DNA of 64,000 nucleotides from Sulfolobales archaeon (GTDB lineage Archaea; Thermoproteota; Thermoprotei_A; Sulfolobales; NBVN01). Made by a program: the position numbers and the translations under genes. The stretch lies in contig JAWBTQ010000001.1 in NCBI GenBank assembly GCA_038841535.1, positions 180,142-244,141 on the forward strand, written 5' to 3'. A model generated the notes under the pieces. The model worked only from the letters and a program-made list of their open reading frames with translations, had not been told where the DNA came from and made no database searches. Numbering within the stretch: the stretch's first letter is position 1; every line of letters starts with the position of its first letter. Of this stretch, positions 31,365 through 46,339 are shown piece by piece.

Positions 31365-31623
31365 ACTCCAGACCAAACCTTAATGTTCGGACTAAGCCTT
31401 ATAAGCTTCAGGTATGTGTAAAGAGAAGCTATCTCGATTATTAGCGCATGTAATCTTAGTACCTATATTAGCACTAAACACTACCACATAGCGTCTCTGC
31501 TACGATCAATACTCAATAGATCTACGAAGAGCGGTAAGCCGCGCTCCTATGAAACACTTTCCAGCCTTGCGCAACTGTTTCGTCTTTCATATCTGTTTGT
31601 ATTGGTTGATATTGATCGGAAAC

Positions 31624-31845
31624 TTTATAAACACCTTTACAGTGATATATGTAGATACATCTCGATGAGGGATCGAGAGCCGCTGTAGTGCTGTAGTTGA
31701 CGGCTCTCCCCGAGGTACACCAAGATGTGGGGTGCTAGGGGTAGCCCCGAACGCCCCCAAGGGTGATGCAAACCCAAGACCTATGCGGGGGAACAGAGAT
31801 GAAGCAATGAAACCAACCAATATAAACCTATATCGGAGCTGAACC
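31624..31845 (+). mobile_element. Family B element, copy 1: TATA + 5' hairpin + tnpB-tail/omegaRNA-like scaffold (internally deleted IS200/IS605 derivative or ncRNA)
   Basis: TTTATAAA at 31624; stem GAGAGCCG/CGGCTCTC (31675-31708); 31721-31845 aligns with 42932-42809 on the minus strand. Confidence 0.7.
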
Positions 31846-32274
31846 CCTACAGTACTTACTAAGGTAGTTTTCTAAAATAGCAGCAGACCTCCTGTTAGCT
31901 ATTAGAGTGTGAACCAAACCACCAATCTTTATCTTAATTACGTAAATCTCGCAGTAGAATACTCCACCAATCTTTATAACTTCGCTAGGGCTTACCCCCA
32001 AGTACTTAAGTAGCCTCCCCTCGCTTCTATCAAGCACCTCTATCTTTCTCTTACTCTTTCTCACCGTGAATCCGCATTCGCGTCCCTCAAGAATAAGCTT
32101 CACATACCTCGATATAACGCTACTAACCTCTCGAGGAGACAGTGAACCTTTAGTCCTGCGTGATTCTGAGACCTGCGTATCAAGAACTACTTCAATAAGT
32201 CCATTCTCATTCAATAGCATAGTAGCTGGCATTAAGAACCTACTACTCCTAAATAAAACCTTAACTTTTTTCAA
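31828..32274 (-). CDS. Hypothetical basic protein
   Basis: 148-aa ORF overlapping the rtcB stop (translational coupling); no recognised motif. Confidence 0.65.
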   Translation of the reverse strand: MKKVKVLFRSSRFLMPATMLLNENGLIEVVLDTQVSESRRTKGSLSPREVSSVISRYVKLILEGRECGFTVRKSKRKIEVLDRSEGRLLKYLGVSPSEVIKIGGVFYCEIYVIKIKIGGLVHTLIANRRSAAILENYLSKYCRGSAPI

Positions 32275-34463: not shown

Positions 34464-34662
34464 CTCCGACCTTGGGGGGTGTTGGCGGGCGATGTCGGAG
34501 CCTCTAGGGGATGTTTACGAAAGTGTAGATGTGGATCTGTGCCGTCGGGCTCGAAGGGGCTCAAGACCCTCATGTGGAGTAGTCGGTAGCGACGTTGAGC
34601 CACGGAGTCGAGACCCAGCCACCACAGAAAAACCTGAGGAAACCTTGGGGTGGGAACAGTAT
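34464..34662 (+). mobile_element. Family A element, copy 1: 5' hairpin + tnpB-tail/omegaRNA-like scaffold
   Basis: Stem CTCCGAC/GTCGGAG (34464-34500); 34526-34662 aligns with 43141-43002 on the minus strand. Confidence 0.7.
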
Positions 34663-42808: not shown

Positions 42809-42932
42809 GGTTGAGCTCTGATATAATTTCATATTATGTGATGTCGTCGCCTCATCTCCGTTCCCCCGCATCCCGCTCGGGCTCTCATCGGGCTTTGGGG
42901 TGTTCGAGGCGACCCAGAACCCCCATACCCTG
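42809..42932 (-). mobile_element. Family B element, copy 2 (tnpB-tail/omegaRNA-like)
   Basis: Aligns over about 125 nt with 31721-31845; preceded by the hairpin TGCCC...GGGCA at about 42953-42982. Confidence 0.7.
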
Positions 42933-43001
42933 AGTAGCCGAGGAACGGATAGTTGCCCGTGTCCACCAGTTTTCGTGGGCATAAGATCATTCCACCTGAG
43001 C

Positions 43002-43141
43002 ATACCGTTTCCCGCTCTAGGTTTTTTAGGTTTTCCTAGGGCGGGTTGTGCCCTCAGCCCTGCGGTTCACTGCGGCTACCAACCACTCTACGCAGGGGTC
43101 ACGGGCACCCTTCGAGCCCAACGGCACGGGGCTCACATCTA
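43002..43141 (-). mobile_element. Family A element, copy 2 (tnpB-tail/omegaRNA-like)
   Basis: Aligns over about 140 nt with 34526-34662; hairpin GAGCCC/GGGCTC; TTTATAAA at 43200-43207 upstream. Confidence 0.7.
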
Positions 43142-43539
43142 GCTCTACCTCTAGGTGTCTCGAAGTACCTCTCATCATCACGAAAAATCCCACAAAACCT
43201 TTATAAACCTAGCGCACTAAAACAGTTGCCAACCCTGTATTCCCCTACGGCTACCGGGCCTTGCTTTTATCCCAAGAGTAGTTCACGGAGCTTCGTCCCT
43301 CGTCAATGGCTCATCAGCTCACGGGCTCCGATATATCTAAGTAATCTAAGTACCAAGTACTTTTTAGTGGCTAGCTTGGAGCCGAAATCCCTGAAAATCT
43401 CTCAGGTAACTAAAAGAACCAAAAACTAAGCAACCAGCAAACAGCCCTGTAGAGTCACTCAGACATTATAGTACTTGTTTTATCCTCAAATACCTTATAT
43501 AACAAAACCAGCTTGTAAGACTTCACCTAGGAAACGGTC

Positions 43540-43920
43540 CCCAAACCATGCTCCTAATTCTCTCACCATGCCTCTCGATAGCTTTCTTAACGTCTCTAAT
43601 AAGCCTTCAGGACCTAGGATAGCGTTTCTGAATGCTCTGAATCCATATTCTGTGAGTCAGTATCTTCCTAAGAGTGTCTTGAACCTCTTGAGCCTGAGGA
43701 GCTTACCTTTGTTATTAAACACGGTTAGCGTGGTGCCGTCCAAGTTTATGTCCACGGTCATAACTGCTCTAATTGTCCTTTAGCTTAATTTTCCTGGAGT
43801 AAAATAGATACGTAGATACCTCTATCACCAACTCTCACAGTCAGTCTTCTTGGAACAGGTTTCCTACCACTGCTCCTCCTAGTAGCTTAGACTACAGCCC
43901 TAGCGTACAGGTCTACTAAA
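43540..43920 (-). pseudogene. tnpB: tnpB (IS200/IS605 RNA-guided nuclease) fragment
   Basis: Frameshifted translation GRKPVPRRLTVRV / IYVSI / RAVMTVDINLDGTTLTVF..KLLRLKRFKT / LRKILTHRIWIQSIQKRYPRS*RLIRDVKKAIERHGERIR gives RuvC-I (VDIN) plus a basic helix. Confidence 0.8.
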
Positions 43921-46026: not shown

Positions 46027-46339
46027 ATGCTACCACCTCCGCAAACCTGGACTCCCCAAAATCTAGGATAGCCATCACTGAGACTGGAAACTGTTTCCCA
46101 CAAACTAAACCGAGATCATAACTTGTGCCTGGATACCTTATAACAGGTATTCTACCGAGGCTTGCGTAATGAATTACGTCTGCCTCAATAGTTGGCAGTA
46201 TCTTGCTGGCAACGATGATTGCCTTCGCTTTACCAGTCAATACAGCCCTTAAGCTCCTCTTACTCCCCAGTATGTACTTACCTGTTCTAATTACGTTCTT
46301 TATCTCTTTCTCCAGCTCTGGTCTAGTTAGCTCACTCAC
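46019..46339 (-). CDS. rpl30e: 50S ribosomal protein eL30
   Basis: TGKYILGSKR, LGLVCGKQF, GES. Confidence 0.95.
   Translation of the reverse strand: MSELTRPELEKEIKNVIRTGKYILGSKRSLRAVLTGKAKAIIVASKILPTIEADVIHYASLGRIPVIRYPGTSYDLGLVCGKQFPVSVMAILDFGESRFAEVVASV

Follow-up and report, generated by a model that had tools for sequence, protein, structure and literature searches.

A 64,000-nucleotide stretch of the genome of a Sulfolobales archaeon (contig JAWBTQ010000001.1, positions 180,142 to 244,141; hereafter the window) carries two copies of a dispersed repeat, family B. A preliminary description of the window had likened this repeat to the omegaRNA, the guide RNA of the transposon nuclease TnpB, standing alone. 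Family B is, with near certainty, the right-end and omegaRNA module of a tnpB-only transposon of hot-spring Thermoproteota. The first copy in the window (copy 1, 31565-31847) is a 281-bp non-autonomous derivative of this transposon that arose by internal deletion, and it was inserted after the species had split from two sister species. The second (copy 2) represents the tail end of a full-length element that has decayed. Taken as a whole, these observations are probably best explained by a gene-less derivative of a TnpB transposon that moves in the manner of IS607 and whose omegaRNA is used in trans.

Family B Is the Right End of a tnpB Transposon

The window's own genome (G000) comprises 1.56 Mb in 40 contigs, numbered here with the prefix C, and is 84% complete. 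Pairwise alignment bears out that copies 1 and 2 align at the two places first noticed, and both are members of one large family. A blastn search of the genome with positions 31600-31900 returned 50 rows, the query row included, and a search with the repeat gave 41 matches, one of them a 13-nt chance match. A profile built from 77 copies of the family produced 57 hits genome-wide, exactly two of which lie in the window, at 31711-31847 (+) and at 42938-42809 (-, E value 2.6e-29). Two occurrences of a 20-nt core pattern are found in the window, where chance would yield 0.02, and none of 100 shuffles reached two.

The three blocks that the two copies had been said to share before diverging are present, and similarity ends after ...AACC(CC) in both. 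This 3' boundary is sharp throughout the family. In the multiple alignment, copies end in ...GAGCTGAACC+CC or ...AGAGCTGAACC+CC; similarity ceases at ...GAACC+CC in 45 listed copies, and the DNA beyond is unrelated between copies. Many of the copies are decayed (70-77% identity by blastn). The family was found in four of the nine other genomes of the genus and in three of the nine other genera of the taxonomic family, one of these three being weak. The sole match outside the taxonomic family, 41 nt long with an E value of 6e-4, was taken for chance. Searches against Rfam at gathering scores returned no family in the window except a tRNA, and full-length elements gave no Rfam match at E values up to 1. 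The only weak hit, to a C/D-box snoRNA model (E 1.1, 15 bits against a cut-off of 44), was dismissed as chance.

The identity of the repeat emerges from the genes next to it. Matches to the Cas12f1-like TNB domain of TnpB (PF07282) number 14 in the genome, and four of them lie directly upstream of a repeat copy (Table 1). On C19, an unbroken tnpB frame enters the repeat and finds its stop codon inside it, so that the first ~100 nt of the repeat are the last ~35 codons of tnpB. The remainder of the repeat past this stop extends to the right end of the transposon. In full-length members, the 130 nt hence overlap the 3' end of an intact tnpB, which identifies them as the omegaRNA and right-end module; a 3' overlap with tnpB that runs to the right end is the standard layout of an omegaRNA gene. 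The full C19 element measures ~1.5 kb (1,499 bp from left end, LE, to right end, RE), and its left end, which contains GCAACTGTTTCG, lies ~300 nt upstream of tnpB.

The TnpB encoded on C19 carries the motifs TIDVN, LEDL and DRDVVA together with a CxxC...CxxC ribbon, and the RuvC D-E-D residues and the zinc ribbon are thus present. Pfam recognizes only the TNB domain in this protein, and residues 226-352 align with solved TnpB/Cas12f chains (best E value 6.6e-8), a weak match over the RuvC/zinc-ribbon part only. In a tblastn search of its own genome, this TnpB found one intact copy, that on C19, four fragments of 73-84% identity at contig ends (C9, C35, the far end of C19, and C3), and decayed pieces as well. 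As the fragments are cut by contig ends, several full-length copies probably break the assembly. In relatives, a TnpB 50-82% identical to it stands directly upstream of the module in 8 of the 22 loci that were fetched with long upstream flanks. Relatives of the TnpB itself occur at 51 loci, in hot-spring metagenome-assembled genomes labeled Ignisphaera, Desulfurococcaceae, Sulfolobales or Thermoproteota. The comparison with the genome and with tnpB loci of relatives, which the preliminary description had called for, thus shows the repeat to be homologous to the 3' ends of intact tnpB genes.

Structure of the omegaRNA Scaffold

The scaffold was analyzed on an alignment (A2) of 77 distinct copies from seven genomes, and its helices (Table 1) were found by eye and by an all-pairs scan on these same sequences before being counted. 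The four helices are 85-94% paired, and six pairs change on both sides. The varying pairs of helix H1 are found at alignment columns 36-47 (UG 45, UA 12, GC 11) and 37-46 (GC 44, UG 12, CG 10), and that of helix H2 at columns 61-91 (CG 50, UG 11, UA 6). The inner stem pairs consistently at columns 65-84, 66-83, 67-79 and 68-78. The first three of these pairs flip from G-C to C-G or from U-A to C-G, with counts of CG 40, GC 20 and GU 4 at 65-84, CG 36 and GC 23 at 66-83, and CG 40 and UA 23 at 67-79. The swapped but still pairing inner stem that had been noticed between copies 1 and 2 therefore holds as a real compensatory change across the 77 copies, in a slightly different register.

Changes on both sides are seen in 129 cells, compared with 57.3 +/- 5.4 in shuffled alignments (0 of 500 reach the observed count), and the covariation score of 0.261 compares with 0.143 in shuffles and at most 0.10 with slid partners; the shuffle tests are inflated by the relatedness of the copies, and the structure was derived from the tested sequences. 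The helices lie within the C-terminal tail of tnpB, and there the protein changes (PKGDAYPRP versus PKPDENPSG), yet the pairing is kept, which points to constraint at the RNA level. Structure with covariation, as expected of an omegaRNA scaffold, is hence found, subject to the RNAalifold result and the alternative pairing described below.

Other pairings fared less well. The single-sequence centroid fold is 71% paired on the alignment with a score of 0.099, inferior to the counted helices, and the inner hairpin of the single-sequence fold is 51% paired. A 3' hairpin at columns 133-138/144-149 (68% paired) and a long-range GATGT/ACATC pairing (86% paired, varying on one side only) are not claimed.

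Copy 1 Is a Miniature Element

Copy 1 keeps the left end, promoter, leader hairpin, omegaRNA scaffold and right end of its parent (Table 1). The TATA-like box and the hairpin with the pattern C-GAT-GA-GGG...CCC-GA-G, both reported earlier ahead of the repeat, are present, and the mobile element extends from 31565 to 31847; the start at 31624 that had been given for it omits the left end. This left end is common to 29 short copies and the full-length C19 element. The subterminal TATTGGTTGA at 31600-31609 recurs inverted near the right end and is, at 10 nt, the sole inverted feature. The leader hairpin encloses the former tnpB start codon (ATG 31665-31667) and a distal stem, GAGAGCCG/CGGCTCTC. 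The tnpB frame meets a stop 7 codons past this ATG, and past CCCCGAGG (~31715) the sequence jumps to the tnpB 3' end. The deletion thereby joins the tnpB leader and start codon to the last ~35 codons; the former stop lies near 31808-31810, and the terminal block reads GGAGCTGAACC. The earlier proposal of a cassette from which the nuclease gene had been deleted is thus apt for copy 1, but copy 2 is not a stand-alone element. An antisense open reading frame (ORF) of 77 aa lies within copy 1 (31587-31820, -); it is probably not a gene, with many indels among copies.

Among 49 right ends examined, 29 have an LE 190-316 bp upstream, and these short elements fall into size classes of ~190, 272-288 and 315 bp. 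One right end has its LE at 1,499 bp (the C19 parent), and one could be paired only with the LE of a neighbor. The remaining 18 are without a detected LE and include tnpB-linked copies, copies at contig ends and copy 2. With both parental ends, no transposase or nuclease ORF, and 29 LE-RE pairs, the short copies are non-autonomous derivatives. They show neither the terminal inverted repeats nor the target duplication of classical miniature inverted-repeat transposable elements (MITEs), and are therefore MITE-like only by size and copy number. The preliminary description had opposed its RNA module to MITEs and to palindrome-associated transposable elements (PATEs). Copy 1 turns out to be a complete non-autonomous transposon, with a left end and a site that is empty in relatives.

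The genes that flank copy 1 are syntenic in all nine other genomes of the genus. In the two sister species (G002 and G007), the flanks are separated by an intergenic stretch without the element, and two further family sites are likewise empty in relatives. The exact boundaries are given by a near-identical strain, represented by a public-library contig of 203 nt. Of this contig, 173 nt match 31846-32018 with three differences and the other 30 nt match the left side, so that 31564 is joined directly to 31846 and exactly 281 bases are skipped, CC to CC. Copy 1 is thus polymorphic for presence and absence with exact boundaries. No target duplication was seen at the three sites compared. Where occupied sites have CC on both sides, the empty sites have a single pyrimidine pair, which is CC in the near-identical strain and TT, CT and TC at the three sites in other species.

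Two observations concern the effect of such insertions on the genome. A conserved ORF of 148 aa without a Pfam family (31828-32274, -) ends in ...KYCRGSAPI*, and its orthologs in the two sister species end in ...KYCKRESDS* and ...KYCERESAS*; its last codons and stop now come from the inserted element, in antisense. In addition, two copies of 314-316 bp from one subfamily, at C10:14490-14805 (L064) and C1:37177-37490 (L065) of G000, lie where synteny is broken. The left flank of one of these copies adjoins, in G002, the right flank of the other, with 1 nt separating the two, which suggests that recombination between the two copies rearranged the genome.

Ends and Mode of Mobilization

At 32 left junctions, the core dinucleotide is CC in 28, with G at position -1 in 28 and A at -2 in 22. 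This flanking G persists at -1 in the empty sites of relatives, indicating that it belongs to the target; the A was counted at occupied junctions. Most right junctions carry CC as well (...GAACC+CC). Neither end has a significant DNA hairpin on either strand (z +1.05 to -0.68), and Y1_Tnp (PF01797) has no match in the genome, which is 84% complete.

A candidate source of the mobilizing enzyme is found on C18, where a 195-aa TnpA (HTH_17 + Resolvase) overlaps a 423-aa TnpB in the textbook IS607 arrangement. The LE of this element reads GG followed by TGTGCAACTGTTTCG and its RE ends in ...AAACGG, giving a matched dinucleotide GG at both ends. The 12-nt LE motif of family B, GCAACTGTTTCG, also stands at the LE of this tnpA(Ser)-tnpB element. 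IS607 elements are described as having GG at the termini, an invariant GG at the target and no duplications (PMC6188088). CC at the junctions, the absence of duplication and hairpins, and the LE motif in common with the C18 element together point to IS607-like rather than IS200/IS605-like mobilization.

Family B thus has ends of the IS607 kind, with the same dinucleotide at both, no inverted repeats and no duplication, save for the non-CC empty sites. It lacks the serine-recombinase TnpA of its own that IS607 elements encode, and is hence classed as a non-autonomous, IS607-like element rather than a full member of the family. The subterminal palindromic hairpins and the Y1 (HUH) TnpA that characterize IS200/IS605-type PATEs were found neither at its ends nor in the genome, respectively. 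Three places in the genome carry yet another left-end-like sequence, AG GG TTG GCAACTGTTTTA, a third variant that may belong to an additional related family of elements. Left ends were also sought with a loose regex scan, which returned mostly noise.

A K-turn Encloses the tnpB Start Codon

The motif CTC/GAT/GA/GGG ... CCC/GA/G is found conserved in 52 copies of the family. Its complete form is seen in full-length leaders (n = 28, with TnpB identity down to 48%), in which a segment of the 5' untranslated region and codons ~15-17 form a C-stem of 6 bp that is 96% paired. Four of these six pairs change on both sides, for instance from CTACTC/GGGTAG to TCTCCC/GGGAGA or CTCTCC/GGAGAG. Over the whole leader structure, the number of pairs that change on both sides is six, compared with 3.0 +/- 1.0 in shuffles (reached in 1 of 500), and that of cells is 14, compared with 4.3 (0 of 500). 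At the sequence level, the core is that of a canonical kink-turn (K-turn): the third bulge base is U in 28/28 leaders, the 5' G is present in 28/28, the 5' A in 27/28, the 3' A in 28/28 and the 3' G in 23/28, and the closing pair is C:G in 28/28. The conserved N-terminus opens with an in-frame ATG or GTG that spans the bulge and the first G, which places the tnpB start codon inside the motif.

In short copies (n = 44), pairs 1 and 2 of the C-stem are kept in 34/44 each and pair 3 in 6/44. Since the deletion takes the 3' strand of the C-stem, the motif of copy 1 is a remnant. The K-turn suspected earlier ahead of copy 1 thus gains support as a covarying feature of the leaders of full-length tnpB genes, but it is only partial in the short copies.

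A possible role is suggested by the leaders of archaeal l7ae mRNAs. These are reported to contain K-turns with a GAU bulge and tandem G:A/A:G pairs, and L7Ae bound to them to occlude the ribosome-binding site (PMC6298567). The genome holds two matches to the L7Ae family (PF01248), the stronger on C8 and the second in the window (46046-46315, -, 52.6 bits). By analogy, a translational brake on TnpB is a reasonable hypothesis for the K-turn. Among the papers listed in a literature search, no title or abstract linked L7Ae or K-turns with TnpB; of two papers that hold all three terms, the one listed concerns IS110.

A wider proposal would have L7Ae or a paralog gate translation of the nuclease, with the short copies acting as guide-only hyperparasites. 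These would move by means of an IS607-type serine TnpA and be restored after excision by the TnpB of another element, guided by a promoter-driven omegaRNA of their own that begins with the remnant of the K-turn. We regard this as tentative and rather doubtful. If true, it would connect RNA-guided maintenance of transposons with the K-turn/L7Ae system of archaea, and TnpB homing would then extend to archaeal elements with a serine recombinase.

Guides, RNA and Proposed Mechanism

The 3' flanks, which would serve as guides, are unrelated between copies, in keeping with the variable guide of an omegaRNA. Only one guide shows a second perfect match in the genome, and this is inferred to be the same locus at two contig ends. 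Trans targets in the own genome are limited to stretches of 16-19 nt with 1-2 mismatches, a number that a rough estimate puts near chance. Mapping the guides to chromosomal targets, as had been advised, thus led each guide back to its own flank only. Unique flanks without a second match fit an omegaRNA that targets its own emptied site, and argue against a domesticated regulator.

The module is covered by contigs of one metatranscriptomic library, with five listed pieces between 31674 and 31850 that show 8-16 differences each. The summed contig depth in this library (5-8 over the LE and 380-1,528 over the scaffold, as against a ratio of ~1:7.5 in the DNA runs) was dropped as evidence, as it cannot rank the parts of a stretch.

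In the mechanism that we propose, the IS607-type serine TnpA encoded on C18 would act in trans and move copy 1 by exchange at CC, leaving no target duplication. The old tnpB promoter would transcribe ~190 nt of hairpin and scaffold and run on into the flank, and the guide of the resulting omegaRNA would match the copy's own insertion site. The intact TnpB encoded on C19 would load this omegaRNA in trans and cut the emptied site after excision, and repair from the sister chromosome would restore the element. The short element would in this way exploit both TnpA and TnpB. The presence of an intact TnpB of the same family on C19 makes action in trans possible, and use of the omegaRNA of short copies by this nuclease is plausible. 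The chances that the RNA of copy 1 is still made and used seem evenly balanced.

Several points weigh against a functional omegaRNA moved and used in this way. A strict TATA box is kept in 8 of the 29 short copies and is degenerate in the others or, in the 190-bp class, deleted. Given their 8-16 differences, the library contigs come from other members of the family, and carry-over of DNA is possible in a metatranscriptomic library. Related sequences can beat shuffles without any structure, and the covariation may date from full-length ancestors. RNAalifold on the 77 copies yields six pairs and no covariation, the single-sequence fold of the putative copy-1 transcript has a z of -0.71 and prefers another structure, and an alternative pairing of G/C runs is also 91-95% paired, though it hardly covaries. 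As to movement, the three empty sites of other species carry TT, CT and TC instead of CC, family B is without its own tnpA so that cross-mobilization by the C18 TnpA is putative, and the absence of a Y1 transposase is not proven by a genome that is 84% complete.

These points lend some weight to the view that the short copies are inert debris, mobile through both of their ends, with a functionless RNA whose scaffold is kept by its overlap with the RE and by the youth of the copies. Such an account is an appreciable possibility, if not the one that we favor. It would accommodate the many copies decayed to 70-77% identity, the 21 of 29 short copies without a strict TATA box, the loss of the K-turn C-stem beyond two pairs, the guides that match nothing else in the genome, and the weak thermodynamic signal from RNAalifold and the single-sequence fold. 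It explains less readily why 125 nt or more of the right end are retained in all size classes, which differ in their deletion junctions; this length is believed to exceed what a transposase normally needs. The pairing of the structured part in 85-94% of cells over 77 copies, the presence of the module in RNA-library contigs and the intact cognate TnpB in the genome also speak against inert debris.

The other two alternatives are less likely. Movement as an IS200/IS605-type PATE, that is, as single-stranded DNA handled by a Y1 (HUH) TnpA through subterminal hairpins and inserted 3' of a fixed motif, is improbable. The parent is tnpB-only like elements of the IS1341 group, which are filed under IS200/IS605, and an (A)G is conserved in the left flank; against this stand the missing Y1_Tnp match in a genome 84% complete, the lack of a significant hairpin on either strand of either end, the identical dinucleotide at both junctions and at the near-identical empty site, and the LE motif common with a serine-recombinase element. 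Least probable is a domesticated host RNA, either a guide for a nuclease-dead TnpB-like repressor or an L7Ae-bound noncoding RNA serving the host, the latter having been raised in the preliminary description. An own promoter with a K-turn-type motif and L7Ae-family genes in the genome would suit such a role. The locus is, on the other hand, an insertion absent from the sister species and the near-identical strain; it is one of ~50 copies, each with a different flank, and it overwrote the last codons of a conserved ORF. Moreover, the TnpB of the family retains its catalytic D-E-D, and no guide has a second matching site. Nothing thus supports domestication, as the guides differ per copy and match their own flank only, and the gene-less transposon derivative with an omegaRNA for use in trans remains our preferred explanation.

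Copy 2 and a Second TnpB Family

Copy 2 was delimited by its profile hit and by pairwise alignment. A tnpB pseudogene remnant belonging to it shows 56-62% identity to the C19 TnpB in two pieces, and its DNA is 70% identical to the C19 element. Between this remnant and copy 2 lies a nested short element of a second family, of C18/IS607 type, with an LE-like piece (43183-43237) 84% and an RE-like piece (43004-43142) 91% identical to the C18 element. A nested insertion is consistent with the spacing, as ~580 nt minus ~235 nt leaves roughly 112 codons.

The C18-type module has ~10 copies in the genome. A weaker right-end module of this type (72% over 113 nt) is found in the window at 34526-34635 (+), inside overlapping small ORFs. 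Elsewhere in G000, a decayed IS607-type element at C6:10711-11446, with two stops in the resolvase, a tnpB fragment kept and ~70% identity to the C18 element, adjoins a short family-B copy at C6:11442-11718.

Table 1. Coordinates of the family-B features in the window and of TNB-domain matches adjoining repeat copies elsewhere in the genome
Feature	Position (strand)	Description
Copy 1, left junction	31563..31566 (+)	Flank AG, then core dinucleotide CC at 31565-31566
Copy 1, left end (LE)	31567..31623 (+)	GCAACTGTTTCG motif at 31571-31582; subterminal TATTGGTTGA
Copy 1, TATA-box-like TTTATAAA	31624..31631 (+)	Preceded by purine-rich GGAAAC; former tnpB promoter
Copy 1, leader hairpin with K-turn-type core	31661..31715 (+)	CTC / GAT bulge / GA / GGG ... 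CCC / GA / G
Copy 1, tnpB 3' remnant and omegaRNA scaffold	31716..31845 (+)	Homology to C19 tnpB 3' end
Scaffold helix H1	31729-31734 with 31743-31748	94% of cells paired
Scaffold helix H2	31754-31758 with 31787-31791	94% of cells paired
Scaffold inner stem, 3-nt bulge	31762-31765 with 31780-31781 and 31775-31776	85% and 90% paired
Copy 1, right junction core CC	31846..31847 (+)	Most family copies end ...GAACC+CC
Copy 1, flank	31848..31867 (+)	Presumed guide if read-through; antisense to 3' end of neighboring ORF
Copy 2, right-end/omegaRNA module	42809..42943 (-)	Profile hit, pairwise alignment
Nested short element, C18/IS607-type second family	43004..43237 (-)	Between tnpB remnant and copy 2
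tnpB pseudogene remnant of copy 2	43541..43779 (-)	Residues ~161-240; tblastn
TNB hit on C19	1409-1603	Repeat copy 1402-1269
TNB hit on C9	40807-41001	Repeat copy 40793-40667
TNB hit on C1	173485-173670	Repeat copy 173677-173786
TNB hit on C3	5-178	Repeat copy 185-319

Significance and Comparison with Known Systems

The identity of a structured-RNA family of ~50 copies is settled by these results, and there is no need to chase a new RNA class. Family B offers a clean natural case of gene-less guide-RNA carriers outside bacteria, with ends of the IS607 type. The exact boundaries, the empty sites and the parent nuclease are the parts required for testing whether TnpB serves guides in trans, and the start-codon K-turn offers a testable lead, hinting that the nuclease is throttled via L7Ae, whether by archaeal hosts or by the elements. 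For genome annotation, it matters that one copy rewrote the end of a conserved ORF and that two copies are found at a rearrangement breakpoint.

The kind of mobile DNA to which copy 1 belongs, gene-less transposon derivatives that carry an omegaRNA, is already known. PATEs are stated to encode, in many cases, omegaRNAs that need TnpB in trans (10.1101/2023.03.14.532601), and with this idea in print the concept is not new. The PATE-like elements of Geobacillus stearothermophilus described in the same source resemble family B in having no protein gene, both ends and a retained omegaRNA, and in both cases TnpB for the RNA and TnpA for the DNA would come in trans. Compared with these elements as described there, family B has ends without palindromes, CC at both junctions and an archaeal host, and its deletions fuse the tnpB promoter and leader to the scaffold. 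The CC at both junctions speaks for a serine recombinase and not for a Y1 enzyme.

The IS607 family (PMC6188088) shares with family B the lack of terminal inverted repeats and of duplication, the same dinucleotide at termini and target, and a tnpB with a 3' guide-RNA module. It differs in that the core of family B is CC on the tnpB sense strand, where the C18-type elements and IS607 read GG, and in that family B is without tnpA and its empty sites in other species are not CC. The tnpB-only elements of the IS1341 group and archaeal TnpB such as SisTnpB1 resemble the full-length parent on C19, a solo tnpB with an omegaRNA overlapping its 3' end in a thermophilic archaeal host; the transposon-adjacent motif of SisTnpB1 is given as TTTAA (10.1101/2023.03.06.531077). 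TldR proteins, nuclease-dead TnpB repressors, likewise use a TnpB-type scaffold with a 3' guide. Their guide RNAs are reported to belong to fixed host loci beside a dead nuclease (PMC10705468), whereas family B is mobile and numerous, with arbitrary guides and an intact nuclease.

The K-turn finds its closest counterpart in the 5' leader of archaeal l7ae (PMC6298567; see also PMC5539422). Here the motif is located on the mRNA of a transposon nuclease, whose start codon falls within the bulge and the first GA; binding of L7Ae is putative, and the short copies have a truncated C-stem. Three features are new in family B, namely its occurrence in an archaeon, its IS607-type ends and a covarying K-turn around the start codon of the parent.

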